A DNA stretch of 64,000 nucleotides from Trichodelitschia bisporula. Taxonomy: Eukaryota. Below are positions 13,057 to 41,898 of the stretch, piece after piece (positions within the stretch are counted from its first letter, which is position 1; every line of letters starts with the position of its first letter). The stretch spans positions 368,153 to 432,152 of the forward strand of contig ML996697.1 of assembly GCA_010356995.1 (NCBI GenBank). The letters are read 5' to 3'. The notes under the pieces are model-generated. The model did not search any database, was not told the DNA's origin, and saw only the letters and a program-made list of their open reading frames with translations. A program made the position numbers and the translations under genes.

Positions 13057-16000
13057 ATGACACCTTCGGCCGACGATACCCCGCAGTATACTTCGCCAAA
13101 CAACTACAACTATCAAAGAACCCGCGCCCACGGCCATCCGTTTGACGGGATCGTCCAGCGTTCGCACGGCCATCATGAAGCTGGTCGAAGGGAAACGTAC
13201 GGGGAGAAGTTGCCCAAAATATATCCCAGGGAGTTGTAAGTAGCCCTCCTTCCATCTCGTCTCTAGACCACTTGTCGTTGGAACCCTCACCAAATGTACT
13301 GCGCGGACGGCGCAACCGCAACACAGCGCTGACAGCGACTCAACAGAAAAAAGTCGTCGGCTGCTGCATCGCGCTATCCTTCTCCATCCTCACCCCGCCC
13401 CATCACATCGCCACTTCTCTCTGCACTCGGCACCACTACCAGCACCGCCGCGCAGTACACCAGTGACTGGACTAAGTCCCTCCCATTCTTTGCATCGACT
13501 TCGCCCGGCAGCAACGCCAGCTCCCCGCCCACTCAGATTCCTATCCAGGTTCGTGATGGTGGGCTAGGATTCACAAGCGTGTCCCCGTCGCCACCGTCGC
13601 TTCGTACGCAGAGCCACCCCAACAACCCGCACCACGGCTTTGGGGGTCGCCAGCACCCATCGCCACACCATCGCGACCGTCGATCGTCCATGTATGCGCA
13701 CCACGCGGGTAGACCGGCGCACGGTAATCACATTCCGCTGCCGCACGAGGACCAGGCGCACTTCCACCCGGGCGGCCTGCCCGACTTCAACAGCATCGGC
13801 ATGGCCAAGACGGGGCTCGTCCCCGGCGAGAAGGGGTACGCTTGCGCCTTTGACTCGCTCGGCACCAGTGGACACGTCCCTTCGTCGTCGGCGGAGAATG
13901 TCCTGCATGTCGGCTATGAAGGCGGCGTGCTCGTCTACCGCATCGCTCGCAAAGGCGCTGACGTAATCGGGCGTCTGGATAACCTGCGGGGTGCCGTGAT
14001 CGGAGCTAAGGTCCTGCCGTGGACCTGTCGCTCGGATCCCGGCCGCGCGTCGCGCCCCTACATTGCGCTTGTCGTTCACGGGCCTGTGTTTGCGGACGAC
14101 GAGGTCTCCGACTCGAGCAACTCGTCGGCTGGGCAGAGCGATGCGGAAAGCCCGACTCCGTCGAGCCGTCCGTCGTCAAGCAAGGGCAAGACCTTCAAGG
14201 ATGTCGTCACTCATTACCAGACCACGGTGGAGGTGTACTCGCTGTCCGCGAAGAAGCATATCGCGACACTCTATTCTAGCCCTCGCGTCGAGGTCGAGTA
14301 CACTTCAGTCGGCGAGTGCAAGATCCCGCCCCCGGTGGGAGACTTGCGCGTAGACGCCAACGGCAAGTTTGTAGTGGTCGCGTCTGGCATTAGCGGCGAG
14401 ATCTTTATCTTTTCGCCTTACACCAAGCAAGGCGGTGATGATCTCGATTCTGTCCGTTGCATCGGAAAGCTGTGGACCTGTATCCAGCCGCGCGAGCCCA
14501 AGGCGTCGTCAAATACGTCAAATGCGACCGAGCCGTCAAGCCCCATCGAAGAGGATGTCCATGGCGTTCCGCTCTTTTCATTAAGCAACCGCTGGATCGC
14601 AACGGTGCCCCCGCCCTCCGCCTACAGCTTCTCGCTCGGTGGCACGGCGCTGCTTGCGAGCCCAGATGCCCCCCGCCCACCTGGTATTGCCATGCACATG
14701 TCCCCGCCGCCGCCGTCGTCCAACTGCGCCGTCGACCTTCCTGGCGACGATGACTTCGTCAACCGCGTATCACGTGAGGTGACGCAGGGCGTCATCAAGG
14801 GTGCGAAGTGGATGGGCGAGCAGGGAATGCAAGCGTGGAACAGCTACTGGAGCAAGGGTGAACAGAACCGGTATCCGACCAACGGCCATACCCACCCAGA
14901 GCCTCCGACGCAGCAGTTCCCGCCGACGCATGCGTACACCCCGCCGGTGCAGGCCGAGCCAACGCAGGTTGCTATCTTCGATCTCCAGCGTTTCCTCGAC
15001 GCGGAGGAGGTTCGCATCCGGAATGTCCTCCAGCCTATTGCTACCTTCGAGCCTCCTTCCGGATGTAGCTTTGTGTCGTTCGCGCCGAGCGGCCTGGCGC
15101 TCCTCACTGTCAGCAAGAAGGGCGATGAGCAGTTTGTCTGGTGCCTCATGCGAACGCATAATACTCGCTCTCCGACATGCTCAGGCGTGTCACGCCTCGG
15201 CCCGTACGTGCGGCAGATTGCCAAGTTCACCCGCATGACGGTGTCCAGCGTAGTGGACGTCGCGTGGCTTTCGCCACAGGGCATCCGCTTCGCGGTCGTT
15301 ACGGAGCGGGGCACAATCCATGTGCACGAGCTCCCGGCGTCTGCCTTCCAGTGGCCGCCGTTCCGCCGCGGGCGTCGTCTTAAGCAGGCGCGCAACGTGC
15401 CGCAGGATCCCAAGGGGCCACCGTCGCCAAAGGGCGCGCTCACGTCCGCCATGGATACAATCAACGGGACGAGCACCTGGCTTCGGTCGGTGCGTCAACG
15501 GAGTGGCAGCGGTAGCGTGGGCCTCGGCGGACTCGCCATGGCGCCCGCGAACGTTGGGAGCAAGGTCGTCAAGGCAGGCTTCAGCAAAGGCTTCAGCGCC
15601 GTCGCGAGCTCCGCAGAGACCATCTACCACGCCGGTGAAAACAAGCTGCACCTCGAGGCGTCAACCACTCGCGTCGCACCGGGATGCATGCGCTGGATGT
15701 CGGGCAAGGACAAGGGGTCGCTGGCCATCGTCACGTCGGGCATCGTCTGCATCTACTCCGTGCGGCAGACGACGACGGCGCGCAAGGGGAAGCCTCCTCT
15801 GCTACGGGCTAAGATCTCGAAGAAGGCGATTGAGCTCCCTCTGCATACGATCCCGAACGATCAGTTTGCGCCGGCGACGCGGGCGGTTGTTGAGGCGAAG
15901 ACTCAGGGCGCGCCGGTTGAGGGCATTGCGCCGGTGGCGGGGATGTGGAATCTGCGCGCGCCGTCTGCTGCTACGCACACACATGACGATAGGGAGCATG

Positions 16001-16452
16001 ATAATTGGCATGTGCCTGTTGAGGCGGAGTCGGACCCGCCGTATCCGCCGTTCCACACCGACCGGCGGGTGAGCCTGTTCGCGTACCCAGAGCCCGAGGA
16101 GGTCGTTGCACGACCAGTACCAGACGCAAACGATGCACTCGAAGACTTCGGTCACTTCGAAGATACGCTCGAGGAGTGGAAAGTTGAGTCCCTAGAGCCG
16201 TGGCTGCGTTCGGTACACCATGTCGATGACGACGAGGGTGCGTGGATGTACGGTGCTGAAATCAAGGATCTTAAGCTGCTGCTCGAGGGGACGGGAGTTG
16301 TGGATGACAGCGCCGACGAGATGGAGATGCGCGTGTCAAGGGGTGAGGACGGGACGCAGCTTGTCGTCACGACGGTGCGCAAGGCGGGCCGGGAGGAAGA
16401 CTTTTTCGAGGATGATTGTGATGTGATTGATTTTGCGGACGAGCGGGTGTAG
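13057..16452 (+). CDS. BCAS3/PROPPIN-like WD40 beta-propeller protein (2 exons, intron about 13236-13347)
   Basis: 957-aa ORF extended upstream via GTAAGT...CTGAC...CAG intron; motifs SFVSFAPSGLALLTVSKKG and FTRMTVSSVVDVAW...VTERGTIHV typical of Atg18/BCAS3-type propellers. Confidence 0.72.
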
Positions 16453-18084: not shown

Positions 18085-18647
18085 GCTTGCGTGTGGGTTA
18101 GGGGAGGATGGGAAGGGCAGGTGGCGGTGAGGAAGGGTTGCGCGGCATCGGGTGTCGGGGTACGGAGACGTTGTCATTGCCTTGCTGTCTGTCATATCGC
18201 CGACGGTACTGGTGTACCATGGTTTATCACTTGGTTCGGGTGTCGGTAACTCAGGAAGGGGGTCGGTGTGAGTGAAGCTTACGTCTCGAGTACGGACATG
18301 CCGTCATCCCCTCCGTAAACGTATCCGAGCTAACCCATCCAGTAACTTGAGTACGCAAGAAGTACGGCTAGGACCCTTCTACCAAAGGGACGCTATGGAA
18401 TATCTACCACAATTCCTCTGAGGATCAGGCTATCAGGCCATGTAGTTACGTTGCCTTGCACATTGGGGTCCTCACCGTCGGTCGTAAGCACTGAAGCCAA
18501 ATCCCTATAAATACTCTCTTCCCCACTTGTCCACTTTGCTTCTCACCCCAAAAACAACTCGTTTCAGTCAGTCAGTCAGTCAAGCACAACACCAACCAAC
18601 CTTGATCCACCTTCATCTGACTCCATCAACCTTCATCCACCTTCATC

Positions 18648-18755
18648 CACCTTCATCACCTTCATCACCTTCGTCACCTTCATCACCTTCATCACCTTCA
18701 TCACCTTCATCACCTTCATCACCTTCATCACCTTCATCACCTTCATCACCTTCAT
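18648..18755. repeat. (TCACCTTCA)n 9-nt tandem repeat in putative 5' UTR
   Basis: About 11 copies between a TATAAA near 18506 and the ATG at 18806. Confidence 0.92.
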
Positions 18756-18805
18756 CCCTTTCACCCCTCCATCCACTTCTTCCACCTCTCATCCCAGATC
18801 CACCA

Positions 18806-20005
18806 ATGTCGCTCCACTTCCCCGTCGACATGCACGCCCCGGATTACACTTGTCCCGAGTGCACCGCCCCCCGTCCCTCCCCCCCGGGCGCCGTCATGGA
18901 CCCAGCCAGCACCGCCGACCATCCCTTGGACGACTTCGTGATCGATGCCTATTCCGATTCCGATTCCGAGACTGAGACCGGACACATGCAACTAGACCTA
19001 GACGACCTCCCGCGGCCTGCCCGCGCGCCCTCCTCCCGGCCCCTGCACGTCTCTGTGATCGATGCCAATGCCAATGCCAATGCCGATTCCGATTCCGATT
19101 CCGATTCCGAGGCCGAGACCGAGACCCTACTAGTTCTAGGCGACCTCCCGCGGCCCGCCCGCGCGCGCCCCTCCCGGTTCCCTACCACCGGGCGGTCCAG
19201 CTCCTCGCGGCGCGCCCGCCGCCCCGATCCAATCCGGCCCAACGGCGTCAGCGCCCCAGTCTGGCCCCGCCACCGCCCCGTGCCCGCCTCCGCGCCCTCT
19301 ACCGGCCTTGGCACCTGTCGCACGCCGCTAAACGGCCTCCGGCGGCCTGCCCGCACGCCCCCCAGCCGAATCCCCACCACCAGAGGGTCCCGCTTTCCGA
19401 GCCCCTCCCGCCGGGCCGTCTCTCTTGCCACCATGTCACGGCCTATCGACGACCCGGCGGATGTCGCTCCAAATACGTCCGTTTCTCGGCAATTCGAGCT
19501 CGATGTTGCCGCGGCCGCCGCGCGGGGGGTGGACCCAGGTTCCATACATGATTACGGAGTCGCCATCGCCCCCATCGACGCCTCGTCGGAGGGTGGAGGA
19601 CGCGAGGACACCTGGTCACCAGCCGAGGAGCAAGGCTGGGGCGCACTGCACGAGCTGTTTTATGAGGCGGAGTTGCAGATCCATGCCGACATCCGCAGAA
19701 TCATACCCATCGCCGGCCTAAACGATGCCAACCGTGTGTCCGCGGACGCGCGTTCGACCTTCCCGCGGTATCCTACGACTCACTTGGCCCTTATGATCGC
19801 CGAGCTCGGACAGATGGGCGTTGAATTGCATGACCAAGCTCACCGGCGACTCGGAGAACTGCGCCGGGATGTCGAAGCCGAAATTTTGGAGCTTGAGGTC
19901 TCGCCTGCACAGATGGCCGTTGATACGGTCGCTGGCTTGGCGGAGTGGCGGAGGGATTTCCTTGAGGAAATTATTGATAGCTTGAGGAACGAGACGTTGG
20001 GTTAG
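18806..20005 (+). CDS. Orphan hypothetical protein with internal duplication and C-terminal helical region
   Basis: Intronless about 399 aa; duplicated VIDA..SDSDSE.ET..L.DLPRPARA segment; upstream TATA box; CPEC motif near N-terminus. Confidence 0.6.
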   Translation: MSLHFPVDMHAPDYTCPECTAPRPSPPGAVMDPASTADHPLDDFVIDAYSDSDSETETGHMQLDLDDLPRPARAPSSRPLHVSVIDANANANADSDSDSDSEAETETLLVLGDLPRPARARPSRFPTTGRSSSSRRARRPDPIRPNGVSAPVWPRHRPVPASAPSTGLGTCRTPLNGLRRPARTPPSRIPTTRGSRFPSPSRRAVSLATMSRPIDDPADVAPNTSVSRQFELDVAAAAARGVDPGSIHDYGVAIAPIDASSEGGGREDTWSPAEEQGWGALHELFYEAELQIHADIRRIIPIAGLNDANRVSADARSTFPRYPTTHLALMIAELGQMGVELHDQAHRRLGELRRDVEAEILELEVSPAQMAVDTVAGLAEWRRDFLEEIIDSLRNETLG

Positions 20006-20276
20006 CTCGGGTGTGGGATGAGGAAGGCTCCTGTCCTTCCCATGCAACGCCAGCGACATAAGCGACAATACTACAGCCCGGCCTCAACTTCATGAGGATG
20101 GCTCTCGCCCACCTAGTCCTAAATTCGGAGAGACAAGGGCCTGTCAGCGGAGCATCCTTGCCTTCGGCCGACACGGACTTTGCCCGACGCTCATCGACTC
20201 CGCAGCTCACCCTACATCTATCTTTTTCCGCAAAAACTGTGCATCAATCCACACTACGACGAGCCCAGCTCGCCCA

Positions 20277-20348
20277 TCTTCCGTAGTCTAGTGGTCATGA
20301 TTTCCGCTTGTCACGCGGACGGCCCGGGTTCGATTCCCGGCGGGAGAG
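20277..20348 (+). tRNA. tRNA-Asp (GTC), intronless
   Basis: Acceptor stem TCTTCCG/CGGGAGA, anticodon arm TCCGC-TTGTCAC-GCGGA, T-loop GGTTCGATTCC, followed by a TTTTT Pol III terminator. Confidence 0.96.
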
Positions 20349-21419
20349 ATCTTTTTGCCGGTCTACGACACCACGCTCCCCGTGATAGGAAGGAACGTCC
20401 AACCCAGCTCGCAACGGAGATTTGCGGCTCTGGCTGGGCGGGCACGGGCGCAGGTTAACTGGCTCTCGATGCGATCTCCTTTTTACTGCATCCCAAGGAG
20501 CGATGGCGCTGAGTCCTGTTCTGAACCTCATCGGATATTTGGAAAATTGGTGGCCCTTGTGGCCTGTTTCGCTCCTCCTTCCGATACTTAGAAGTCACCC
20601 CAATGCCCCTCTCTTGTCTCAGCGTTGCGCTTTCGTTCTCGCGTTGCGGTGGCGGCATCACTTGACGCACCACGGAAGGGATAGGGTGCTCAGCGCTGGT
20701 TTTACGGAAGCGGGTCTGGTGTGGTTTTTGGATTCGGGTGTTGATTTGGCTGCGGATTTGGCTGTACATTTGGTTGTTGATTTGGCTATGGATTTGATCG
20801 TGGATTTGGTTGTGTATTTGGCGTTGGATGTGGCGTTGGATTTGGATAACTTTGGCTGTAACTAGGCTCTCTTACCGGCTTCTTGAAATGTCTCTAGAAT
20901 ATACACTTCAACCTTTTACAGTCCATGTCCGTGTACACTTTAACAAGCTTCTGCCGTTAAGCCACCGTAATTTCCTACGGGATAATGATTCTAGCGATGG
21001 CAGGGCAGATCCAAGGGTAGTTAGGGCCAAGTGAGCGTCACGTGTGCTCCGAAAGGGGAAGGTAGGGTTGATTACGTCACGGCATGCAAACTCAGCAGTC
21101 GATGGAGATCTTTTTATGGGAACTAGCTAGATGAACTCATGCATATTCCTCAACCCTCATCGTAGTCGTCATCAACTCAATCGTCGTCTTCAAGCGTAAC
21201 AGAACCATCGGCTCAAACAAGCATCTCAAGTCAGTACCGCAAATCTTCGTCTCAAAGCCTAATGTCGAAAGCTTTAAGACCCATAACATCACAAACGCCC
21301 TGTAACCAGCATCTTAAACCACATCGCAGAATCTCATCATGTCGTTCACAATCCATCCATCTCGAAATCACAAGCCCAGTTCAGTTCGCACAATCATCTC
21401 CAATCTTCCATCGCCCAGT

Positions 21420-23158
21420 TTACTCCGCAAAGTGGACACGCTTCGGGGAGCTAAACGCACGCCCATCACCCCCACGCAGGGCACTCCGCAATCCCACCTC
21501 AGCACTCGAATGGCGCCTCTGACGCTGGCCACGCAAACCAGACGCGCTCGCCTCGGCCCGAGGACCGGCAGGACGCGTCTGGGTCGGCTGGACGCGCTGG
21601 CTCACCTCAGCCCGAGGACCGGCCGGACGCCCCTGGCTTGACTGGGCGCGTTGGCTGGCCTGACGTACCGGAATCGCCGCCGGTGCCTGTCTGTGATGGT
21701 GCTCCTGAGCTTGTGCCTGCCCATGGCGATACTCCGAAGCCCGCGCCTGTCTGTGGTGGTGCTCTGGAGCCCGCGTTTGCCCATGATGTTGCTGCGTCTG
21801 ACCATGATGCTGTATCTGACCATGATGCTGCGTCTGACCATGATGCTGNNNNNNNNNNNNNNNTGCTGCGTCTGACCATGATGCTGTATCTGACCATGAT
21901 GCTGCGTCTGACCATGATGCTGCGTCTGACCATGATGCAACGTCTGGCCATGGTGCTGCGTCTGACTATGGTGCTGTGTCTGGGCATAATGCCGCTCCGG
22001 AACCGGCACGCGCGGAATAGTGTGACGCGGCGCCTGGGGGGTGGACTCACTGCGACTGTGCTGAGCCACGCGATAAGCAGAAGTCGGCATCTCCGTACGC
22101 GGAGTCGGATTCAGCAGGCCTTCGAGCTGATGATGAAACCTCTGCCAACGCCTACGCAGCCGGTCAACTTCCGCTTCAAACTCTTCTAGTTCGGCATTGT
22201 TTGGAGGCGAGGGATAGGAAGCCGCGCTGCCGGAAACCGTGCTATGGCAATGACGGTGCGCGTGTGTGGTGCCGGAGCCAGTGCCTTGAGCCGAGATGGC
22301 ACCACGACGCTCACGAGGTGTGCTGTCCAGGATTTCAGTGCGGGTCCTCTGAGCAGCAACGGGGACATCGAGGGGGGTGCAGTGCTCGCATGTGCTGGCG
22401 GGTGACGGGCGAGAAATGCCTGCCGAAGGGTGCGGGATGTCGGCCCAGAAGTTCATCGTAGGATTCGCCGGGTGAGCGGACGCCTGGCCCGGGCGCGGCA
22501 GGTAAGGCTGCTGAGCACGCATCGCTGGATCCGCCGGAGGGAACGCATGGCCCGGCCGCATCGGGAGAGGCCGCCGAGCACGCATCGCGGCCGTAGCAGC
22601 GGACGGTGGCTCTTCGTACCACCCGAGCGGCTCACCGCCAGCCCTAGCGACAGGTGGATTCACGGGAAGGGGAACGTGCCTATGGTACTCTGGGATTGCG
22701 CCAAGTCCGTCGGGGGCGCGCACCGGGGCAAAGGGCACCATCGGAGGAGCCTGGGGATACCCGAAAACTGGAGCCAGCGGATGGTGCCAAAAGGATTCAG
22801 GCTGTGGGGGTGGGAAGGCCGGAAAAACTTGAGGCGGCGGGGGGACCGGAAGAGCTGGAGGTGGGGGCGAGGGTCCCCAGTGGCCATGTATCTCCGTGGC
22901 ACGCTGAAGAGTATCCCTACCACCAGGTGGGCTGACAGTCAAGGTGCCATCCTCGCGAAACCTCAAGTTCAACTCCTCGGGGGTGGGAGGCATGGCCAGT
23001 ACATCCTGAAGAATCTGGATCCGCAGAGCCTGAGATTCCGCATCGTAAGCGGGGACAATCCGGGCGCGGTCAGCTCGACGTTGCCATTCCTGAGTGTACG
23101 CGGGCGAGTCATTTGAGTAGGAGAAGTATATCTCCATGGGGAGGAGAGGGTGATGCAT
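21420..23158 (-). CDS. Pro/Gln/His-rich disordered protein, paralog 1 of the KRVHF family (spans assembly gap)
   Basis: After the N-gap the QHHGQT repeat frame continues ...AAIPVRQASQ...RRHSSAEVGLRSALRGGDGRAFSSPKRVHFAE*; the apparent frame change is a gap artefact. Confidence 0.7.
21780..21990. repeat. 18-nt coding tandem repeat (QHHGQT)n with gap at 21849-21863
   Basis: Unit TGCTGCGTCTGACCATGA on the + strand. Confidence 0.93.
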
Positions 23159-24203
23159 GATTGCAAGTCCCCGTTGAAGTTCAAGCAAAGGTATTGGGTA
23201 AGGACGACCGTGGCGTGTTAAGGTGAGGTTGCCGAAAGCAGGGGGAGTTGTTGGAGCCCGGTGTGCGAAACGGTGCCAGATTGACTGCGGACTTGAGCGC
23301 TTGGCTGTGGACGTCCTGGTATCGCAGGCGGCAAAACTCGTAAGCCTTGCCTACGGATCGCTCAGTTCGCACGTCGCTAGCCTGACAGTTCTGCGCCGTA
23401 CTCAACTTCACTTCTGAACGCCAGATAGGTCAGCTTCAAGTCGCGACGCCGAGCTCAGAGCATGGCTAGCTCACCGCGCAATCCAGCTTTCAATGTTTAC
23501 CAATGCGGCTTTGAAAGCCACGAGAATCGCCAGCAAGGGGCAGAGCGCTCTGCATTCGAAGCTGAGACAAAGCGCGCTTGGATGTTGTGGGGATCAACAA
23601 AGAGTGGTAGGGAGAGGAAAAGATTGCGGGGAGAAAGAGTTGGAGAACCAGAGAGAGCTAATGGCGAAGTTCCTCTGTGGCGGCTGGAGTATTTTCGGTA
23701 CGGTGAGGCTGTGCAGAGGGTAGCAATGGAGAATGGGGAAGGAGTGCCAGATCGTGCCTGCCTGTACGATGAGTGTGGCTCCTATGTGTGGCTCCTATGT
23801 GTGGCTGCATCACAGGTTGTGATGTCGCAAGGCTGTTGAGACGAGGGAGTTTGTCTAATCTCCATGATAAGGCTGAGGGCAGTTGGGCACGTGAGAGCCG
23901 AGAAGGGAAGGCAACGGTGATTTGTCACGGCATGCAGAACTCAGCAGTGGATGAGATTTACCGTAGTCTGTCGTCTCAACACTTGTCCGAAATCATTGCA
24001 GTTATCAGCTCAAATGCAACCATCTCACCCCTGGGCAAGCGTACGACTCATCCCAAAGCCCAATACCATAGGCTTCACGATATCCTCATAGCCAGTATCT
24101 CCAGACCACACTTGCTCTACGGCATCAGACGCCCACAAGCCATCCACCTTAAAACCACAGTTTGGTCCAGTTCGCAACACCGTCTCAAATCCCCTGCGCC
24201 AAC

Positions 24204-24908
24204 CTACTCATGCTCGAAGTGAACCCGCTTCCTCGGCCCACGCCCATGCCCAGCTCCTCCACGCATCGCACTCCGCAGTCCTTCTGCGCCAGACGAATGG
24301 CGCCTCGAACGAGGGCCCGGCGCCCCCTCAGCCCGAGCAAAAGGCCGCGCCTCAGACCGCGCATCGGCGGGACGTCCTTTCGTCGGCAGGACGGGGCGGC
24401 TCGCCTGGCGCACCGGAGTTGCCGCCCGCGCTTGGTCGCGATGAGTCCCGTCGCGGAGCTGTGTCTGGCTGCGGTGCTGTGTTTGGCTATGCTGCTGCTC
24501 CAGACGCGGCTCCGCCGGCGCACCCGTCGGGACGCCATGCGGGCCCGGGGGGTAGGAGTTCCGACGCGAGCGCCGAGGCAAATGCTGAGGCGGAGCCGGC
24601 ATCTCGGAGCGCGGAGTCGGCGAACGACGGGCGCCTTCGCGACTGTGGCCGTGCTCGTCGACTTTGTGCATGGACATCGGCCCGCCCAGTTCGTTGAAGC
24701 GCCGGTTTCGCTCTTCGAAAATCCCGTCTCGCTTCTGGAAATGTCGGTCTCGCTCCTGGAAATGTCGGTCTTGCACCTCGAGACGCCTGTCTAGCTCCTC
24801 GAGACGTTGATCTAGCTTCTCCTGAGCGCGCGCAGCGTCAAAGCCACCTCTGGCACGATGCAAATCCTCCATCGCATAGTCGCCCATGCCCCGGAAAGGA
24901 TGCGACAT
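24204..24908 (-). CDS. Disordered/coiled-coil protein, paralog 2 of the KRVHF family (234 aa)
   Basis: MSHPFRGMG...RDRHFQ heptad repeats...ATPVRQASR...RRHSSGAEGLRSAMRGGAGHGRGPRKRVHFEHE*. Confidence 0.7.
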   Translation of the reverse strand: MSHPFRGMGDYAMEDLHRARGGFDAARAQEKLDQRLEELDRRLEVQDRHFQERDRHFQKRDGIFEERNRRFNELGGPMSMHKVDEHGHSREGARRSPTPRSEMPAPPQHLPRRSRRNSYPPGPHGVPTGAPAEPRLEQQHSQTQHRSQTQLRDGTHRDQARAATPVRQASRPVLPTKGRPADARSEARPFARAEGAPGPRSRRHSSGAEGLRSAMRGGAGHGRGPRKRVHFEHE

Positions 24909-25169
24909 GTCGTTCGAGTGTATGCCAAAGTCTTGGTAAAGGTAGGGTGTAGGAATGGCCACAATACGGCGACTTAAGTTCGCCGAAAGGGGGAGCGGTG
25001 AGGTAAGGATGCGAGTTGTCGGATACGGTACTGTGGCTGGCTGTGTACTCCTGAGCACCGGCCAACTGAACCTCGGATTGTTGTCAGTGTCGGGCTGAGT
25101 GAGGTCTTGCCGAAAGGTAGCAGTTTTTGTGTTCCAAGCTTGAGGATGGACTCCACTTGTGAAAGGTAG

Positions 25170-26775
25170 AGAAGTCAGGCTTTGATCGCGATATCGAGTC
25201 TTAGGGCGTGTACTAACCGATCGCTGATGCAGCGTTGTGGTAGAGGGTGGAAGTGAAGATTCTGCAGTAGATGGAAAAAGGGTGGTGCAAAGAAGAAAAG
25301 GGTTGAGAGAACTGAAGGGAGGATAATAGTGCGAGGTCCTGTGTCGTCGCTGGTGTTGTCCCGGTGACCTAAGCGGTGCACAGTGCGGCAGTAGAACTAG
25401 AGAATGAGGAAAGCACGCTGCATACCTGCCCACACAATAGGGTGGACTCGGCGTGTGCGCCGGCATTACGTCGTTGTTCATATCGCAACTCTATTAAAAC
25501 CGCAGCTTATATCTGATCTCAAGGACAAGGCTGAGGGCAGCCGGGATGTAAGACTGGGTAGAAAAGGTTAGTCAGCATCATGTACTACCCCAACGGGAAC
25601 CGGAAGCCGCCTGACTTAACTGGGGAAGAGGATACTTGCACTAACCATATATCACGGTTGATCTTGTTTGTTGGTCTTGGTTGTAATAAGGCTGTCTTGC
25701 TGGCTTCTTAAAATGTCCACAGAATCTCAAGCATCCTTCAACTCGGCCGCACTCTGTCGTCTTAAATCCCACTTACGCCAACCCGAACATCCCTACTCAT
25801 CTTCAAAGTGGACCCGCTTCGGAGTCCCAGCTGCACCCCCATCTACCCCGCGCATCGCACTCCGCAGACCCCCCACGACAGACGAGTCGCGCCTCGCCCG
25901 CTGGCCACTCGGGCCCGGCTCCCCCGCCTCAGCCCTCGTAGTTGGCCGCGCCCCAGCCCGCCCATCAGCGGGATGTCCCTCCGTCGGCAGGCGGCTCACC
26001 CGACGCGCCGGCGTAGCCTGACGCGCCCGCCCACGATGATCTTCATGAATTTTTGCCCCTCCGTGGTCGTTCCCCGCCCCCCGCGCCTGGCCGTGATGAG
26101 TCCGGCCGCGTAGCTGCTCAGCCTGCGCTTTGATCTAGTCGCGCTCCTCCCTCGCGCGCGCGGTGTCGACGTCATTGACTGTACCATCTAAACCCATGCC
26201 ACGGAAAGGACCAGACATGTTTGTTTGAGTTCAGGGAGAGGCGTTTGTGAAGGGAGGATGCGTTCTAAGCTTAGGGATGAGGTGCGACTGTGGACTCTGC
26301 TTCTGAAGGTTAGATAAGTTGGTCTCTGATTGAGATACCGAGTCTAGGGGCGTATGCTAGCCGCTGCTCAATAGAGTGTCACCATTTGATAATAGGACGC
26401 GCTTGGTTGTGGGTGGAGGGTGGAGGTGAGGATACAACTGTACGTTGTGGATGAGAAAAGGGTGGTGCGAAGAAGAAAAAGGGTTGGCGAACCAAAGGGA
26501 GGATAATAGTGCGAGGTCCTCTGTTGTCCCGGTGACGCTGAGCGGTGCGCAGTGCAGCACTGGAGAATGAGGAAGGCACGCCCGCACAATGGGGGAGGAC
26601 CCAGCGCGTGCGCCGGCATTGCATCGTTGACGTCGCAACTCCGTTGACACCGGCGGCTTGTGATCTGATCTCAAGAACAAGAACAAGGCTGAGGGCAGTT
26701 GGGACGTAAGGCTGTAGAGAAAGGTTAGTCAGCATTCGTGCACTACCCACGGGAACCGGAAGCGGGCCCGTGTTT
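25170..26775. repeat. Direct duplication of about 450 bp upstream block (about 25170-25620 vs 26320-26775)
   Basis: Shared GGGAGGATAATAGTGCGAGGTCCT, ATCTGATCTCAAG, AAGGCTGAGGGCAG, AAAGGTTAGTCAGCAT, ACGGGAACCGGAAGC in the same order. Confidence 0.9.
25793..26218 (-). pseudogene. Paralog 3 of the KRVHF family with premature TAG
   Basis: MSGPFRGMG...DTARAREERD*(26135-26137)IKAQ...RRDSSVVGGLRSAMRGVDGGAAGTPKRVHFEDE*; the stop aligns with Gln of paralog 2. Confidence 0.68.
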
Positions 26776-27355
26776 AATTAGGGAATGGGAATGCGGGCAC
26801 TAACCGAATATTCTGGAGGGGATGTCTTTTTGTTCCCCTGTACACCTACGGTATCTCCGGCGTGGGGTCCTTGATATTGGGGGGTTGATGATATATACCC
26901 GTACTCTCTTCACAGAACCGGGGATAAGGGTGCTGTGTGTCAACCATATACCCAGAAGGTCGATATATATCTGCTCTCCCACCCGCCCCATCATCCACCT
27001 CGCGCCATATATATCCGCCCCGGATTGGCGTCGCTGTTTGACGCAAGCCTGGAAGAGGAAGAATCAGCGGATTGTCCAAACAGGAGAACAAAGGCACATC
27101 CATGGAACCGGAGACCAGAATGATGGCCTCAACCATATATTCAGAAGCTTACATCTACCCCCCAATGGCCATTAAACGCACCGTGTATCTCCCGCCGCGC
27201 GTGCATATACATGCCTATATACCTCATCTCCAGCATTACCCCCCTTCTCCGCGCCCAGCAGCCGTAACAGCATAATCATACCGCGTTACCAGTGATACCC
27301 TTAAACAACAAACGCCCAGTCCATGTATACCAACCGTTTTCCCGCCCAACTACCC

Positions 27356-30300
27356 CTACCCGCAAACAACCGCCACAACCGCCGCCCCAACCCCCAAACC
27401 GCCCCATCCAACCCGCGCCCTCCCAGCACCGCTCTTCTTCTTCGTAGCACTAGCGGCCGCGCTCCCCGTCGGCCCCGACCTCGCCGCCGTCGGGCCGGTG
27501 GGCGTGCGCGTCGCACTTGCGCTTCCAGTTCGGGACCCAGTGGCCGTAACCCTCGCGCCCGCACTCGCACCCCTACTCCCGCCGGTCGTCGTCGCCCCGG
27601 CCGTCGTCCTCGCCTCGAGACCCACAAACGTCGTCCCCCCCACCACAATCCCCACCCCACCCCCGCTCAGCGTAGCCAGGGGGGTAAAAATCCCATCAAC
27701 AACCACGCCCCTCTGCCCCTCTCCACCCCCACTATTAACACCCAGCGCATAAACAACCGTATGCCCGCCCACCACCACCGTCCCCCCAGGAAACAGTGTC
27801 TGCCCACCAACAATAAAGCTACCCCCGGGCAACAAGGTCTCCGTCGTCCCGTCGAGCACAAAGCCTAGCGTGCCCGGGAAGGACACGAGCGGCGTGACGA
27901 CGCCGTTGATCGTCGCGCTTGCGCCGTTGGGGGCGAGGATGATGGTAGAGCCGCTGACGGTTATGGTGCCGCCGGGGGTGAGGGTTTGGCCTGCGATCAG
28001 GAATGTAGGCGCGGCGGTTATGCCCGGCGGGAGCGGGGCCCCAGGCGAACCGCCCGAGCCACCCGAGCCAGAAGCGCCCGTAGGCGAAGGCGCAAACAGC
28101 GTCGTCCCATCAACCACCAGCGCCGTGCCCCCCGGCGCAAGCGACACAGTCACCGGCCCCGCGCCACCGGCCGTGGCAGGCAGCGTAATTGTGCCACCCG
28201 GTGTAAGCGTCTGACCTGCGATGGTGAAGGCGGAGGCAGTTGGGGTTATAGTCGTGCCGCTGAAGACGAGGAGGGGGAGGGGTGTAGCGGCTGGCGCGCC
28301 AGGTGCACCTGCTGGTGCCTGGGCGCCGGCGTTGCCGTTGTTTGGAGCGGGTGCCTGGGCGCCTCCGGGTGCCTGGGCGCCGCCGCTGCCGGCGTTGCCG
28401 CTGTTCGGGGCTGGAGCACCGGGGTTCGGAGCTGCTGCTCCGCTGTTGGGGGCTGCTGCGCCGGCATTCGGTGCGGGGGCGGGAGCGGATCCGGGCGCTG
28501 GTGCGGGTGCGAAGCCGAGGCCTGCTACCGTGGGAGGATTGGAGGTGCTTGTGCCAGAACCCGAACCCGAGCCTGATCCTGCTCCAGCTCCTGACCCTGA
28601 ACCAGAACCAGAACCAGAACCGGACCCCGAGCCAGACCCTGAACCGGAACCCGTGCCAGATCCAGATCCGGAGCCAGTGCCCGAGCCAGACCCTGACCCA
28701 GACCCTGAACCAGAACCCGACCCCGCTCCAGTCCCAGAGCCAGAGCCACCAGCGCTTCCACTGCCACTTCCACTCCCACTTCCAGTCCCGGCCCCGGTCC
28801 CACTTCCACCTCCACTACCAGTCCCGCTGCCCGCTCCACTCCCACTCCCGGTAGCACCTGACGTCGAGCTCGGAAACAGCGCCGCGAGGATGTTGCTCAC
28901 AAGTTGGTTGCCGGAGCTGGCGGGCGTGCTGGTGGTTCCGCCTACACCCGCGATTATGGCGCTGGCGACGTTGGCGCCGGCACCGTTTCCTCCACTTCCG
29001 CTTCCGCTCCCACTCCCGCTCCCACTCCCGCTTCCACTGCCGCTTCCACTGCCGCTTCCGCTCCCGCTTCCTGCGCCACTTCCACTTCCTGAGTCACTCC
29101 CACTCCCACTCCCACCCCCACTCCCCCCACCCCCAACACTCTCCACCCCGACCTCCCCCCCTCCACTATCAGCCGTAGGCGTCGGCCCCACCAACCCCCC
29201 CGTATCCGTAACCTCATGATGCACCAAAAACACCTTAAACCCGCGCTCATACGTCACCTCAACAACAACATACATCGTCGGGCGCGGCGCCGTCCACGTA
29301 CCCGGCACGCAGGAATCCATCGGCGGCACGACATCCGGGAGCACCGACGGGAACGGCGGTGGTGGATCGTCGCGTTTTCGCCACCTCGGCGGTAGGCCGC
29401 CGGAGATGCGAGGTGGCGGAGGGGCGGGGTCCGGCGTCCCAGCCAGCAACGGCAGCATGTCTGCGCCCAGCGAGCCCGTGAGCGGAAGCGCAGACTGCAC
29501 GAGTGCACCCTCATCATCGACGAACATCGATGGCACGGGGCTGCTCAGCGTGACGGTCGTGGTGCTCGTGGCGCAGGCGGGGGAGCCGGCGGCGTCGCTG
29601 GTGGGCGCGAGATAGGTTACTTCGTAGGCGGTGAAGTAGATGAGGTCGGTTGTGGCGGTGCTGTTTGATTAGCTTCATAAAAGTAGGTAAGACTGGTAAC
29701 TTACGCCGTGAGGACAGAGTCGCCGACAGGGACGGTAAAAGTAGGGTCCGCGGGATCGGTGAAAAGGTCGTTCAGGACTGCGGTGCCGAAGGTGCCGTTT
29801 GGCGCGGCGCGGACGGCGCTGATGGTGCTGACGACGGTTTCGACGGCGGCGGGGGGTGGCGGCGTGGTAGCGACGAAGGAGTCGACGGTTTCGCCGGTGT
29901 CGTCCACGGTGGTGGTGAGGATGAATTGCACGTTGCCCTGGGCGATTTCGGCGTCGACGTCGACGCTTGTGGGCTGCGGGACGACGGAGAAGGCGGTTGA
30001 GCCGTTTTGAGTGAGGGTGGTGATGGAGCCGACGGCGGCGAAGATGGTTTGTGAGTACCACCAGTTCAGGCCGCCGTAGGCGTTGATCGTGCAGCCGGTG
30101 CATTGGGCCGTGGCGTTTTTGATGGGGGTGTCGGAGTCGGGAGAGGTGGTGTTTTTGAGGGGATTGTCGATGTCGGTGCCATTGTTGTTCGGCGTGTCGA
30201 TCGGAGTGTCGGCATTTGTGTCATCTTTGATAGGTACCTCGATGCCGGTGGCATTGTTGTTGGGTGTGCTGCTATCCGTACCATCCTTGCTGGGTACCTC

Positions 30301-30885
30301 GCTGCCGGTGCTGTCCTTGCTGGACGCGTCGGTATTGGTATCGTTCTTACCACCATCTTGGACGGGTACCGTGACGTCGGTACCATTGTTGTTGGGCGTA
30401 TTGACATCTGTGCCATCTTTGCTGGGTACCTCGGTGCCGGCATCATGACTGTTGGTATTGTTCTTACTATCATCTGTGCTGGACGCTCCGATGACGGTAC
30501 CATTTCTGACAGGCGCGACGGCATTGGTGTCGTCCCCACCACCATCCTTGCCAGTCGATTTAGAGTCGGCCCCATCCCCGTTAGACCCCGAACCAACTCC
30601 CTTTGCATCCGCCGACGGGCTTAACGACGGATTCGGCAGCGGCGAGTTGACAGAAGCCGAACTGGACGTAAAACTCGAGGCTGATACAGAAACGGATGCC
30701 GCCTCGGCAACGGGCCGGGCGTCAGCAACGGCGGAAACGAGCGACGGGATAACGAGTGCCGAGGACGGTTGTTGGGCGTCAGACGCGCCAGTATCATTAA
30801 CGAAAGGCGTACGCGCGGCAAACCTTGCATGAACAGGGAGCGTGAGCGCGAGGGCGATCGCAAGAGTCAGGCTCTTGGATCGCAT
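27356..30885 (-). CDS. Large secreted, probably GPI-anchored Gly/Ser/Thr-rich cell-wall protein (2 exons, intron 29704-29661)
   Basis: Signal peptide [23 protein letters not shown]-rich repeats; (GS)n linkers; repeated [13 protein letters not shown] motifs; C-terminal [30 protein letters not shown]-like signal; GTAAGT...CTAAT...CAG intron joins ORFs in frame. Confidence 0.85.
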
Positions 30886-32155
30886 ATCTGCGTCTAACGA
30901 AGCGACCTAGCGAGGGAGGCGAGGCGAGAGCGGACTGGGCATGGTCCGGCGTGTGTACGGCGCGGTGCGTGTGGGAGCTGGTGGTGCGGGATAGAGTGCT
31001 TGCTCTCTTGGAAGAGCATGGCATGGGGTTTGGGGGTAGGGGCTTCTTCAATCTATTTTGCTGGGTGGGGAGGATTTGCTTGGGGGGGCGAGAAGGCAGG
31101 TCCTGCGGGTGCGGCTGCTGGGTCCGTTGCGCGACGGTGCGCGACGGTGCCACAGTCGGGATGTGGTGCGCGGGTTTAGGGTTCAGAGGCAACGCGGTGG
31201 GTGGGACGGCGGCGTGTGAGTGGACCACTCGGCAGATGAAGGTGGGTGGGGGGGGGGAGGCTGGGGAAGAGGAACATCACTTGCGGAACGCGGACGTGGT
31301 GAAGATGCGGCAAGGTGTGTAAGGCTGGAGGAGATTGGCGGGCGGAGCTGAAAGGCAATCGGCACGCAGGACAGACACGAAAGGGCTAGAGAGGCGGAGA
31401 GAGGCGGCGAGAGGCGGCGAGAGGCTCTTTGTTTGCTGGCGACTTCTTGGGAGGTTGAGAGGAGAGGGTTGGTTGGCGATGACTGACGCCCAGGCAAGGG
31501 GCGCTTTTCATCGACTGGGGGGCGGGATGGGTTTGACAGGGCGAGAGGCAACCCACCGAGGAACTCTGCGGAGGTTTGTGGCGTTGGCCTCTTGCGCGTT
31601 TTTGGCTTCATGGTGGTTTAACCCATGAAACTGGGCGCTTTTTGGCGGCGGCTGGAAGATGCTTGTTTTGTGCGCTGTCGTCGTCGTCGTGTCGATGGTG
31701 GTGGTGCTGGTGCTGGTTACCCTATTTATTGGGGTGATGGCAGAAGAGACTGCGGAAAGAGACTGCGGAACGAGAGCCTGAAAAGGCCCGACGATCAGTG
31801 GATGCAGCATGTGGGGGAGCAGAGAATGCTGCGTATGCCGAGTGGACACGAGCAGAAGATCCGCAAAGAGGCGAAAGCATGGAAACGAGCTGTCGGACCA
31901 CTGGCGGATGGACGATGGTATCGGATAAGGATATACCGCCAATCTCTCTTGTATGGTTGGCTGCATTTACGGATAGAGAGCGAAAGAGAGTGGAGACTTG
32001 CCGCTTTTGTATGTCACGACAACGTAGAAAGACTGGGGGTATTCATTGAAATCTGCAATGCAATGCAGGACGCAAGTACACGCATTCAATGGTGGTGGCG
32101 GTGCTTGCTGCTTTGCTTTGCGTGCCATCGCTGGGTATCTCGGCTTCAACTCTGC

Positions 32156-33230: not shown

Positions 33231-35459
33231 ATGCGACTCCTTCGTCTTCTGCTGCTGTCGTCGCTGTCGCTGTCGCCGTCGCCCTCCCTCTGCGACGCTC
33301 TCCCTCATAGCGACGACCGGCCCCGCCTCCAAGCCCGCGCCGCCACCCCCTCCACCCTTCCACCGCCCATTTCCTTCGCTCCCGCCCAAAATTGGGAAGG
33401 CATCAACGGACAATGGAACACATTCGCTCTGCGCATCGGCTCGCCAGAACAAGTCGTGCGCGTCTACGTCTCCACCGCCAGCCAGCAGACTTGGGTGGTG
33501 GACCCGCGCGGCTGCCCCGACGACACTCCCACAAACACCACCTGTACCGACTCGCGCGGCGAGACCTTTGATCTGAACAAGAGCAAGACGTGGCGCCCCC
33601 AGGGCCTCTACGATCTGTGGATTGAAGGAAACCTTGACCTCTATGGCAATGGAGAGTACGGCTTTGACACCGTCGGCCTCGGCTACCCGGGCGAGGGAGG
33701 CCCAGTTATGACGGGTCAAATCGTTGGCGCCATCGCTACTCCCGACTTCAACTACGGACACCTCGGCATCAATCCCAAATCAACTAACTTTACAAACTTT
33801 ACCACCCAGTCGCCGAGCTTCATCACCTCCCTCAAGGAGCGCAACCTGATCCCGAGTGTATCGTGGGGCTACACGGCGGGAGCAGCCTATCGTATGTTGA
33901 AGCGCAGCATCTCAATCCAATCCATTGGCCACATTGACTAACACTTTCTAGGCTTCGCAAAGGTCCTGTCCAGCCTCACCCTCGGCGGCTATGATGCTGC
34001 TCGTTTCGTGCCCAACAACGTCTCCTTCAACTTCTTCCCCGACAATGAGCGCGACCTGCTAGTGAGCATCGTCGGAATCACGGCCGACGCCTCCGATAAG
34101 AAACGCACGTCGCTGTTTCCCACATACAAAATTATCTACTCCTACATCGATTCGACCGTGTCCGAAATCTGGTTGCCGATAGAAGCCTGCAAGGCCTTCG
34201 AGGACTATTTCGAGCTGACATGGGACCCAACCACGGAACTCTATCTCGTCTCAGAGGCGCAGCACGCGACGCTGCTCCAACGCAACCCGAACGTCACCTT
34301 CACCATACAGCCGTGGAGCGATCCCAAGTCTCGGCGGGTTGACATCACGCTGCCGTACCGCGCCTTCGATCACTATGCCAAGCCGCCGTACCGCGACCTC
34401 AACCGCACGAGTCGCTACTTCCCTCTCCGGCGTGCGGCCAATGACACCCAGTACACCCTGGGTCGCACTTTCCTACAGGAAGCGTACCTGACCGTCGACT
34501 GGGAGCGGCAGAACTTTTCCGTTGCGCAATGTTCGTGGGAGACGGCGATGCCCCAGCAGAAAATCGTCGCCATTCCACCCTTTAGTAACAGCACTAACTC
34601 CACTAACGGCGGCTCCGCTCCCGGTGCCGCGACGGTTAGTCCGACTAAGCTCGGCTCGGGCGCCATTGCGGGCATCATCATCGCCGCCGCTGCTGTTCTC
34701 ATCGCCACAACCACCGGCCTGTACTTCTACTTCAAGCGGCCAAAGGCCGAGTCATCGCCGGATAAGGACGAGCCCAAGACGGTCGACACCGAGGGCTCGA
34801 AGGAGGACGGCAAAGATGAAGCCACAGGCACAACGCTCGTTTTCCCCAAGGCCGAGCTGGACGCATCCAATCCGCTGCGCCACGAGGCCGCAGGCGGAGA
34901 GTTCTACAAGCCGGGCAGCGAGCCGACGTCCCCGTCGGAGACCCTTCCAGTCATCCGCGTCGAGGCCGACTCCAAGGAGCGCCAGGTGTTCGAGATGGAA
35001 GGCGATTATCCCGAGCGGCAGGAGGCCGACGGCCGCATGATGACGGAGAAAGAGGCGATGCGAGTGCGCGAGGAGCGGTACAATGGCGTCGACAGCTCGC
35101 CCGTTACGGAGACGGCGCGGACGGGGAGCGCGCGCGATGTGTTGCCCGGGTATGAGCCGAGCGATGTGAGCGGACACAGTCCGACGGGCCTGAGTGCGCC
35201 GGGCTTGAGTTCTACGGGAGTCAGTCCCACGGGAGTCAGTCCTACGACGCCCACGAGCAGTGCGCCTGGTGTGAGTCCTGTGCGTGTGAGGCCGGGCCAT
35301 GTGGTCGAGCTGGTGTCGCCGCTGGATGGCACGCTCGGGTCGCGCACGATGGGCTTTTTGCCGCTGAGTCCGTTGGAGGGAGGGACGCTGGCTGTACCCA
35401 GCGGGGAGAGACGAAGGTTTTCGTTCGAGGAGGGGACGCAGACGCAGCCGCGGGAGTGA
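33231..35459 (+). CDS. Type-I membrane pepsin-fold (A1, yapsin-like) aspartic protease homologue, intron 33892-33951
   Basis: Signal peptide; WEGINGQW, GEYGFDTVGLG, LIPSVSWGYTAGA, SLTLGGYD, IDST, YTLGRTFLQEAYL; TM helix GAIAGIIIAAAAVLIA; long cytoplasmic tail. Confidence 0.9.
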
Positions 35460-37869: not shown

Positions 37870-40202
37870 GGATGTGGGGGGGCTTGATCGGAGATTTGGT
37901 TGGATATCACGAGGGATGGGGCGGATGGGTCATGATTTACGTTATGCTTAGCTGTTGAAAAGGTCGTTTTTTAGGAGGTGATGCCGTGAGATGCGTGCCT
38001 GGACTTGGACGTGGAGCGTTGCCCCGGAGCTTCGCCCGTGTTCCGACCCTTTGTTCAGGGCTGGTGACGCTGTCGGTAGTCTGGTACCCTGTGGTATCCC
38101 GTGGCGGGCGTGCCGTGCCGCTGGGCTACCGTACCGTACCGGTCCACCGTCGCGGGTTACACAGTCATTACCGGAGGTAGGCGCAGACAGCCGATGGCCA
38201 CTTACATGAACGACCATCGGGGCATCGTATGGGGTTCAGCCTACAGGTCCCCACCTCTCTCTCTCTCTCTTCTCGGCGTTTACGGTACTTAAGCGCTCGG
38301 GTCAAGTACTATTTACGAAAGCCCCGCTTGTGGCTTTGTGCCCACGACGCTGAATACGAGCGGGAAGTGGGCCAGCCACGTGCGCCACGTGTGACGGGGT
38401 GGATGCGCCGGGGATGGCTCCGGGGGAGTGGGGCGTGGCGTTGTGGTGGAGGAGTGTGGCGCCGTTTGTGGGGTAGCGCGTGGTCGCGGCGTGGGCGGCA
38501 GGATTGAGGATGGGTGTGGGGAGGGGGCGCGGGAGGTTGTTTTGACGTCGTGCTATGATGCTGTCGTGCTGTCATACTGCCGTGATCTCATGCTAAGCTG
38601 TCGTGCTGGATGGGCTTTGTTCGTCGACGTCAGGGAAGGGAAGGGAAGGGGGTGAGATGGGGTTTGTGTGGGGTGGAGTGGAGATGGGATGTGGGAGGAG
38701 GGGATGGGTTGGGGATGGAGTGGATGTTCAAGGGGGACGTGTGGGGAGGGACGTCACTTCCTCCGCCGGAAATGGACGTCGCTGCCCTCGCCGGAAGAGA
38801 CGTCGATTCCCTCCACCAGGAGACCTCACCTCCCTCGCCCGCAATCTCACGCCAATCGCTCTTCGACGACTTCGACGCACTGAAGTAAGGAGCGGAGGTG
38901 TGAGTTGAGTGAGAGGTACTGAAGAAGATGAGGCCGTGGTGAGTTTTTCGAGTGATGATGGGAAGGCGATCTATTATTGAGCAGACTGTCATCAAACTCG
39001 GCTCGCTGTTCAATATCGGCCTTTCGCGACGCCGTCACCGCGACTTCCTTCGTTGTCCCTCGCAGTGCCGAGCCCGTATATTCCCAGGTGATGTTCGACA
39101 CTAGAACTAGTTCTAGCCCCCACAAATCCCCCGCAATCTATCAGAACATGGCTTTTCCGTTGCTGGTAATGGGTACTGATGGTAGCAGATCTCGCATTGA
39201 ACTGCCTCTCTCAGAGACTCAAGTCCCGAGTTCAATGTCGGGTTTCACGCCATCGCAATGACATCCTCCTCTCCTCACGATGGCAGTGCCGTGCCCATAT
39301 TCCACAGTACCTCTCTCCACCAGCCCCCACAGTCGATCAGGACACAGCCTCGACCTCCCCTCCATCCACGTGCACCATCCCGGCAGGATCGGGAGCTCAA
39401 ACGCGTCCCCAACCAAGATCTCGGCATCCGAATTTTGGGCTCAGACGTCGTGTATATATTGCGCCAACCCGCTAACCTCGTCCAAGGCCCCAAATTAGCC
39501 CACACATAAGAGCACCGCCTAAGACCAGACCTCCGGCTCGGTCCGACTTTCCCCCCATCCCGGTAGCAGATCTCGCGTTGCCGAGATTCTCTCACTCTGA
39601 ACTCGGCTTAGCCTTTAATATCGGCCTTCCGAGGTGCCGTGCTTGAATCCTTCCGGCTCTCATAGCCCTCACCAGAGTCCAGAGATCCATGGCGCTGACG
39701 TCTGCCTCCACCCACGCGTTTCATCGCCCCCAGGATTGTGTTCTTAAACGCGTACCGACCTTGTTCCAGGTCATATCACTCCCATCTGCGAAGTACACAA
39801 CCATCATACCTATATTGTGCCAACCCTGCCAAAGTACTGCCAATATGTGTACATTAGCGGCTTCCGCAGTTAGGCTCTAAGACTACGGAGCTAGTGAGCG
39901 TTGAAATAGGACTGTACTAGGCGATGGGGGCGGAACCTCGCGAAGGATTTGCGAAGGATTCGTCTTGATACAGCGAGTGAAGATGTCGGGCTATTGGGCT
40001 AATTTCGGAGGATGTGTTGTGATCATCGGGTGCCGAAGGGGACGGGAACGGGTAACCGGCGGGAGGAGGGTATAAAGAAAGCGACGACGCGCTGAACGGT
40101 CATCATCGCAACAACAGCATCACATCCAGTCTTCACTACTCAGTCTTACATCTCTCACTTCAGCACTTCAATCCAACCACCACCACCCCAACCACAACAA
40201 CA

Positions 40203-40574
40203 ATGTTCATCCTCAAGACCCTCACGACCCTCCTCCTTACCTCCCTCGCGCTCGCCGCGCCAGCCGCCCATCCGAACGCCGAGCAATCCACCAACCTCGC
40301 CGCCGAATCCATCTCCGCAATCCAGGGCGGCCCGGCGTGGTGCACGGAGTCGCCCTCGGGCGGGGGCCGGGCCAACAACCGGCTGACGAAGGACTGCTGC
40401 GCGGCCACCAGGCACAAGGCGTACTTCAACGAGGCGCAGCGCGTGTGTATGGGCTATGGCGGGACGATGGATAATGCGGTCGATCATGGAAAGTTTGGCA
40501 AGTGCTGCGATAGCCGGGGTGGGGGGAGCCATGGTGTGAATCCGACGATGGATATGGTTACGGCTCCGGTCTAG
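40203..40574 (+). CDS. Small secreted cysteine-rich protein (6 Cys), copy 1
   Basis: Signal peptide; WC...TKDCC...C...CC pattern; TATAAA at 40071. Confidence 0.9.
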   Translation: MFILKTLTTLLLTSLALAAPAAHPNAEQSTNLAAESISAIQGGPAWCTESPSGGGRANNRLTKDCCAATRHKAYFNEAQRVCMGYGGTMDNAVDHGKFGKCCDSRGGGSHGVNPTMDMVTAPV

Positions 40575-41855: not shown

Positions 41856-41898
41856 CCACACTCCAACACTTTAAACCTCAACCGCCGCCACCGCAACT

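Follow-up and report, generated by a model that had tools for sequence, protein, structure and literature searches.

A tandem gene family for orphan, mostly disordered proteins with a putative PP1-docking C-terminus in the fungus Trichodelitschia bisporula

The stretch of DNA analysed here, hereafter the window, comprises 64,000 nucleotides of Trichodelitschia bisporula (GenBank assembly GCA_010356995.1, contig ML996697.1, positions 368,153 to 432,152) and contains on its minus strand three paralogous genes, at 21420-23158 (copy 1), 24204-24908 (copy 2) and 25793-26218 (copy 3), which constitute a genuine tandem family whose products are orphan proteins, disordered for the most part. The three products end in the same pentapeptide, KRVHF, which, judged by its fit to the consensus, would be an excellent docking peptide of the RVxF type for protein phosphatase 1 (PP1). 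Binding of PP1 through this peptide is the most likely function of the family, although we regard it as quite possible rather than probable, and we infer the binding itself, the control by kinases and the biological role. The protein-level constraint on the family is moderate, and similarity among the copies is far above chance.

At the nucleotide level, copy 2 matches copy 3 with a blastn E value of 2.5e-29 and copy 1 with one of 8.9e-10, and about 100 C-terminal residues align in all three proteins, with 37 invariant columns, copies 3 and 1 being 58% and 51% identical to copy 2, respectively. A first-pass annotation of this DNA had described a shared C-terminal cassette of 35 residues. The three tails it quoted lie on the minus strand at the positions it gave and the cassette is present in every copy, but the homology spans about 100 residues instead of 35, and it extends approximately 70 nt beyond the stop codon into the 3′ untranslated region (3′UTR). 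The N-termini, which had been described as interchangeable, are not simply so, because copies 1 and 2 share more than the tail: residues 343-401 of copy 1 align with residues 88-150 of copy 2 (E 7e-6) in a further upstream block, PTPRxEMP...QTQH. Copies 2 and 3 represent a direct tandem duplication of a whole unit; besides the coding sequence (CDS), it takes in a long leader, an intron with the last bases of exon 1 and around 100 nt of 3′UTR. Both KRVHF and the motif GLRSA occur three times each in the six-frame translation of the window (127,996 residues), all of them in these genes, and tblastn searches of the window with copy 1 and with copy 3 each find only the three copies below an E value of 1e-4. 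A weak further tblastn match was seen at 6152-6268 (E 1.8e-4).

The pentapeptide fits the RVxF docking consensus, [RK]x0-1[VI]{P}[FW] (PMC4794898), in 3/3 copies. RVxF peptides typically carry basic residues before the motif and acidic ones after it (PMC3795061, PMC8262944), a habit matched by the flanks of KRVHF in the tails G-P-R-K-R-V-H-F-E-H-E (copy 2), T-P-K-R-V-H-F-E-D-E (copy 3) and S-P-K-R-V-H-F-A-E (copy 1). In the AlphaFold model of copy 2, built from the three-sequence alignment, residues 74-234 have no secondary structure and a predicted local distance difference test (pLDDT) value of about 50, which is consistent with an exposed linear motif, and KRVHF lies in this stretch. A stricter five-residue form of the motif, [HKR][ACHKMNQRSTV]V[CHKNQRST][FW], is also found in the three copies; it has 10 matches among the six-frame residues of the window, three of which are these, and composition-matched shuffles contain it anywhere in 0.3-1.3% of cases and within the last 10 residues in at most 0.05%. 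According to the positional scan reported in PMC7613447, which followed the displacement of Inhibitor-2 from PP1, R, V, H and F are each optimal at their own position, with half-maximal effective concentrations (EC50) of 69.7 µM for RVHF versus 234 µM for RVTF. With the Lys added, KRVHF reaches 1.5 µM in Table 1 of that report, or 8 µM in its running text, and is the most potent natural pentapeptide of the scan; the His at position x is described there as contacting Thr288 of PP1, as it does in Inhibitor-2 and spinophilin. The assignment of KRVHF to the RVxF class made in the first pass therefore holds: consensus, basic and acidic flanks and unstructured setting in the model all agree with it, and the peptide is identical to the most potent natural pentapeptide of the scan.

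The family thus shares with RVxF-type PP1 partners a docking peptide of the form [RK]-x-V-x-F within disordered sequence, flanked by basic residues on its N-terminal and by acidic ones on its C-terminal side, but it has no sequence homology to spinophilin, Inhibitor-2 or the yeast Glc7 regulators, and its motif stands just 2-3 residues from the C-terminus, with no SILK, MyPhoNE or downstream secondary motif. Synthetic PP1-disrupting peptides (PMC7613447) offer another parallel, as they contain the identical KRVHF preceded by a basic flexible stretch; those peptides, however, were designed and tested in vitro, whereas here KRVHF is the end of a natural protein known from its sequence. Several observations weigh against PP1 docking. 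RVxF is short as motifs go, its loose form is present in about 25% of proteins according to PMC4794898, and the extended form given in that source, [KR][KR][ACHKMNQRSTV]V[CHKNQRST][FW], is matched in copy 2 only (RKRVHF), the first position of the six-residue pattern being Pro in copies 1 and 3. A SILK, MyPhoNE or other second PP1 motif was looked for beside the tail and none was found. Moreover, a Pfam search with the four protein pieces returned no family at E values up to 1, known PP1 regulators included (Inhibitor-2, Inhibitor-3/Ypi1, DARPP-32/Inhibitor-1 and the CBM21 targeting subunits).

Another conserved block of the cassette, RxRRxSS, is invariant in the three copies about 24 residues upstream of KRVHF, and fits both the PKA consensus and the R-x-R-x-x-S consensus of basophilic AGC kinases of the PKA/Akt-Sch9 type. 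The basophilic kinase site proposed in the first pass is consequently real, and even stricter than claimed. The CDK-like S/T-P-K-R site, also proposed there, fared less well, since [ST]-P-x-[KR] adjoins the docking peptide in copies 1 and 3 but is lacking in copy 2. In Inhibitor-1 and DARPP-32 the RVxF motif and a basophilic kinase site are about 23-25 residues apart, and the present family resembles these small disordered proteins in joining both elements. Unlike in them, the kinase site is here N-terminal of RVxF, so that the order is reversed, the phospho-acceptor is Ser instead of Thr, there is no Pfam match to DARPP-32, and the family is known from sequence alone. A third conserved block, GLRSA[LM]RG, precedes RVxF by 12 residues. 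KNL1 and Rif1 likewise have a second block shortly N-terminal of RVxF, which in them is SILK, but GLRSA[LM]RG does not fit the SILK motif, [G/S]IL[R/K] (PMC6035837). This pattern has no match in any part of the three proteins, and the suggestion that SALR/SAMR is a SILK variant is not supported.

These additional blocks bring in a rival reading, in which the proteins are real but the tail serves some other partner, such as the nuclear import machinery, a kinase or a 14-3-3-like reader of RxRRxSS, and the RVxF match is incidental. In its favour, PP1 would account for only one of the three conserved blocks (RxRRxSS, GLRSA[LM]RG and KRVHF), GLRSA[LM]RG matches no PP1 motif tested, and the tail resembles a basic nuclear signal of the c-Myc type. 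However, none of the copies contains K[KR]x[KR], the simple monopartite nuclear signal, a strict RVxF match so close to the C-terminus would rarely arise by chance, as the shuffles indicate, and each position of KRVHF coincides with the PP1-binding optimum of the scan cited above. We consider a different partner improbable, although far from negligible.

Regarding selection, the codon-alignment check proposed in the first pass yields NG86 ratios of non-synonymous to synonymous divergence (dN/dS) of 0.35 for the 32-33-codon tail in all three pairs and of 0.42-0.55 just upstream, with dS values of 0.61 between copies 2 and 3 and of 0.85-0.88 with respect to copy 1. When the same substitutions were placed at random over 92-103 codons, the 56 identical residues observed between copies 2 and 3 compared with an expected 46.8 +/- 3.1 (p 0.003), and the remaining pairs gave p values of 0.001-0.004, or 0.013 with copy 3 as the template; restricted to the tail, the values were 0.01-0.04. 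Shuffling of alignment columns led to a similar outcome, with 37 of 90 residues invariant against 25.8 +/- 3.2 expected and, in the tail, 18 of 32 against 11.7 +/- 1.9 (p 0.001). Because these alignments were constructed from the proteins, they are slightly biased towards identity. About 100 codons are free of frame-breaking indels in the copies.

This conservation could in principle reside in the nucleic acid, as an RNA element or an antisense gene, and not in a minus-strand protein. Homology does run past the stop codon into the 3′UTR, and the plus strand has open frames too. On the other hand, in the minus-strand frame it is the third codon position that varies most (61, 49 and 38 invariant bases at the first, second and third positions), synonymous differences occur within GLRSA.RG and KRVHF themselves, and the G+C content of the CDS shows a codon periodicity in this frame but is flat in the leader. 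The polarity of splicing is also that of the minus strand, Rfam recognises no family over 19500-27500 except one tRNA, and the identity of the 3′UTRs, 59-72%, is close to the 58.7 +/- 6.3% of random 100-mers. A nucleic-acid origin of the signal is accordingly very improbable.

A weightier rival is that the genes are young and weakly constrained duplicates, proto-genes or decaying ones, of little or no function, whose common tail reflects mostly common descent. Several points support it or speak against a functional tail. The leaders of copies 2 and 3 match at 247 of 287 bases (86% identity; of 13 gap events, 10 are not multiples of three) and their leader introns at 75 of 87 aligned bases (also 86%), whereas the tails match at 73 of 99 bases (74%). 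The tail is hence not the best-kept part of the duplication, given that leader and intron are more alike, and with the intron as the yardstick not even non-synonymous change is slow. The expectation that the motif would be kept better than its flanking DNA is therefore borne out with respect to the 3′UTR, but not with respect to the 5′ leader and the intron. The conservation is also shallow (dS 0.6-0.9), since it is based on three paralogues of a single genome, one of the three copies carries a premature stop (copy 3), dN/dS is just moderately below 1 (0.35-0.55), and the region evolves through the gain of tandem repeats and indels. To this must be added the lack of relatives among 1.84 billion representative proteins and in metagenome contigs. 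Against the rival, protein-level constraint is significant for each pair of copies and when the three are tested together, the approximately 100 codons stay open in three copies while 63-87% of simulated neutral sequences acquire a stop, and copy 1, at a dS of about 0.85, retains 18 of the 32 tail residues. All in all, nearly functionless duplicates seem to us an unlikely explanation, but one to be taken seriously.

The upstream part of copy 2 (25234-25645) and that of copy 3 (26406-26804), both on the minus strand and holding leader and intron, contain exact blocks of 15 and 25 nt that are found nowhere else in the window. The leader region may itself be constrained, as a promoter or a regulatory leader, or it may have been homogenised by gene conversion. 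Its elements were looked for in copy 1 and none was found, the two conserved blocks being limited to copies 2 and 3. An N-terminal extension or a conserved upstream open reading frame (ORF) was also considered for the leader. Most of the indel events between the two leaders (10 of 13) have lengths that are not divisible by three and G+C is flat by codon position, which led us to reject this reading for copy 3 and to regard it as unlikely for copy 2. Repeat-induced point mutation was discarded as a shaper of the copies; with 39 transitions and 44 transversions, the two classes are about equal and there is no such signature.

With respect to relatives elsewhere, a profile of the three tails searched against the 1.84 billion representative proteins retrieved only copy 2 and an unrelated repeat protein (P0002), and a word-based protein search with copy 2 found nothing but itself. 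Metagenome contigs yielded 597 pattern matches and no relatives, and the ESM Atlas gave no usable feature match, with every structure match below a TM score of 0.35. As a control, a conserved neighbour, an ORF with a DUF7053 domain, has 1437 homologues, the best of them 65-73% identical over 50-60% of the ORF, which indicates that the collections hold no close relative of this fungus, and for this reason the empty searches are no proof of species-specificity. A fast-evolving disordered family could be genus-wide and yet go unseen in such searches, although the family is likely lineage-restricted. The first-pass prediction that annotation would miss the family, copy 1 being split by a gap and copy 3 by a stop, is supported, as the protein collections contain copy 2 alone of the three (its self-match, P0001).

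If the tail does bind PP1, KRVHF and the acidic residues that follow it would occupy the hydrophobic RVxF groove on the catalytic subunit of PP1 (the Glc7/PPP-1 orthologue), so that the tail would tether the phosphatase, while the N-terminal parts, helical in copy 2 and Pro-rich in copy 1, would supply localisation or partners. PP1 is nearly identical in fungi and mammals, and its specificity arises from hundreds of mostly disordered partners that have little in common beyond the docking peptide. The serine site within RxRRxSS might either be dephosphorylated by the docked PP1 or modulate the complex. The proteins could then act as a targeting subunit, as a substrate with its own dock or as a competitor, possibly regulated through the nearby AGC-type kinase site. 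In the most specific version of this proposal, the cassette would be nature's equivalent of the synthetic PP1-disrupting peptides: an abundant floppy protein ending in the near-optimal KRVHF would compete PP1 off its other regulatory subunits or buffer free PP1, its grip or inhibitory strength gated by an AGC kinase at RxRRxSS; this would amount to an Inhibitor-1-like switch in reverse order, with its dosage tuned by tandem duplication and repeat growth, and we consider it a long shot. To our knowledge, few PP1 partners of filamentous fungi have been described beyond the yeast set. Should PP1 docking be true, a family known to date from this genome alone would end in the published best PP1-binding pentapeptide, showing that new phosphatase partners can arise from repeat-rich orphan genes, and would offer a compact natural tool to perturb PP1 in this fungus. 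Should it not be true, the family would be an example of fast-evolving orphan paralogues.

As for the individual genes, copy 2 is the simplest. Its CDS (24204-24908, minus strand) encodes 234 residues, from MSHPFRGMG to ...KRVHFEHE*, with the cassette elements RSRRHSS at 24291-24311, GLRSA at 24267-24281 and KRVHF at 24216-24230. AlphaFold models residues 10-73 (24690-24881) as one long helix with pLDDT above 90, which suggests a plan in which a long helix at the N-terminus leads into a basic, flexible tail. The helix is encoded by a 21-nt tandem repeat (24701-24821, 4.7 copies), and its heptads appear to have been made by repeat expansion. Upstream of the CDS, the region 24909-25553 would be a leader, or promoter plus leader, whose upstream part (25234-25553) is the one 86% identical to the copy 3 leader, and on its upstream side it adjoins a predicted leader intron at 25554-25645 (GTTAGT...CTGACTAAC...CAG), proposed from homology with the copy 3 intron only. 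An upstream ATG (25481) shares the reading frame of the CDS and is followed by 191 codons without a stop, resulting in an open frame of 425 residues. G+C is flat by codon position over 24909-25481 and the open frame is not shared by copy 3, and this segment is probably non-coding in copy 2, although an extended isoform is conceivable.

Copy 1 is interrupted by an assembly gap of 15 N (21849-21863) within an 18-nt tandem array that encodes QTQHHG and covers 21786-21982 (period 18, 10.8 copies). The N-terminal part (21864-23158, minus strand) contains 431 codons from the ATG at 23158, is rich in Pro (16%) and reaches the gap within the QTQHHG repeats, and the C-terminal part (21420-21848), of 142 codons plus the stop, carries the cassette (RQRRHSS at 21504-21524, GLRSA at 21480-21494 and KRVHF at 21429-21443) and terminates in ...RQRRHSSAEVGLRSALRGGDGRAFSSPKRVHFAE. 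The open frame on this side runs over 21420-21965 and has the C-terminal end ...RRHSSAEVGLRSALRGGDGRAFSSPKRVHFAE*. Since QTQHHG is read on either side of the gap, each side in its own frame, copy 1 is likely one continuous ORF across a collapsed repeat, which would also be the likely best explanation for the change of frame. Its plan would be a Pro-rich extension, the QTQHHG array and the same tail. Its internal repeat units measure 18, 30 and 54 nt, and such internal tandem repeats, with the 21-nt heptad units of copy 2, shape the family. The N-terminal part has no match in protein databases, not even itself.

Copy 3 (25793-26218, minus strand) spans 141 codons that start with MSGPFRGMG, much as copy 2 does, and end in ...KRVHFEDE*, is without most of the region that forms the helix in copy 2, and contains RARRDSS at 25880-25900, GLRSA at 25856-25870 and KRVHF at 25805-25819. 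An in-frame TAG at 26135-26137 follows codon 27, as codon 28, and there is no ATG between it and the cassette; both this stop and the gap in copy 1, noted in the first pass, are real. The sole candidate seen for an intron that would remove the stop, GTACAG...CAG, measures 62 nt, not a multiple of three, and was rejected. The context of the stop, TAG-ATC-AAA, is unlike the known leaky contexts for readthrough. Copy 3 is thus probably a dead or dying duplicate, a point on which the first-pass reading is not supported, while copies 1 and 2 look intact. A three-taxon split of the NG86 distances assigns omega values of about 0.39 to the branch of copy 3, 0.56 to that of copy 2 and 0.41 to that of copy 1, the first of which suggests that the stop is recent.

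Contigs from two small public sequencing runs of one sample and one study, whose kind was merely guessed to be RNA, were placed on 20000-28000; their depths were not used to rank genes, and uncovered parts are not informative on expression. In each run a single contig connects 26711 directly with 26805, skipping 93 nt with GT..AG ends on the minus strand, and the leader of copy 3 hence contains a spliced intron (26712-26804). It separates exon 2 of the leader (26219-26711, delimited from contigs and homology) from a non-coding exon 1 that borders the intron at 26805 and extends at least as far upstream as 27006, that is, over at least 202 nt. In run X1, contigs at 26127-26300 and 25682-25838 (copy 3) and at 24165-24379 (tail and 3′UTR of copy 2) have zero differing letters; the first is colinear with the genome over the TAG of copy 3, but stops 8 nt beyond it. 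Contigs are absent from the coding part of copy 1, which has a depth trace only near its 3′ end (bin 21335-21601), from most of copy 2 (24539-25606) and from the predicted intron of copy 2. A single contig leaves out 49 nt at 21229-21279 with GT..AG ends on the plus strand, which suggests a spliced plus-strand transcript that converges with copy 1 at its 3′ end. A peak of contig depth with loose ends at 20277-20348 is due to a tRNA-Asp (GTC) gene located there on the plus strand.

The window, with a G+C content of about 58%, is fungal DNA; it encodes a Fungal_trans domain, and a neighbouring gene has its homologues in filamentous ascomycetes. Immediately upstream of copy 3, an ORF of 723 residues (27356-29527, minus strand) consists mostly of Gly-Ser, Gly-Ala and Gly-Thr dipeptide runs, belongs to no Pfam family and is covered by long contigs from both runs. 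Long ORFs at 13333-16452, 18488-20005, 29701-30906 and 33942-35459 have no Pfam match either, and the neighbourhood of the family (13333-35459) is rich in genes without assignment. Farther away, a short assembly gap of 10 N is located at 7823-7832, and two ORFs on the plus strand, at 40056-40571 and 41875-42282, each contain a DUF5948 domain and form a second local pair of paralogues.

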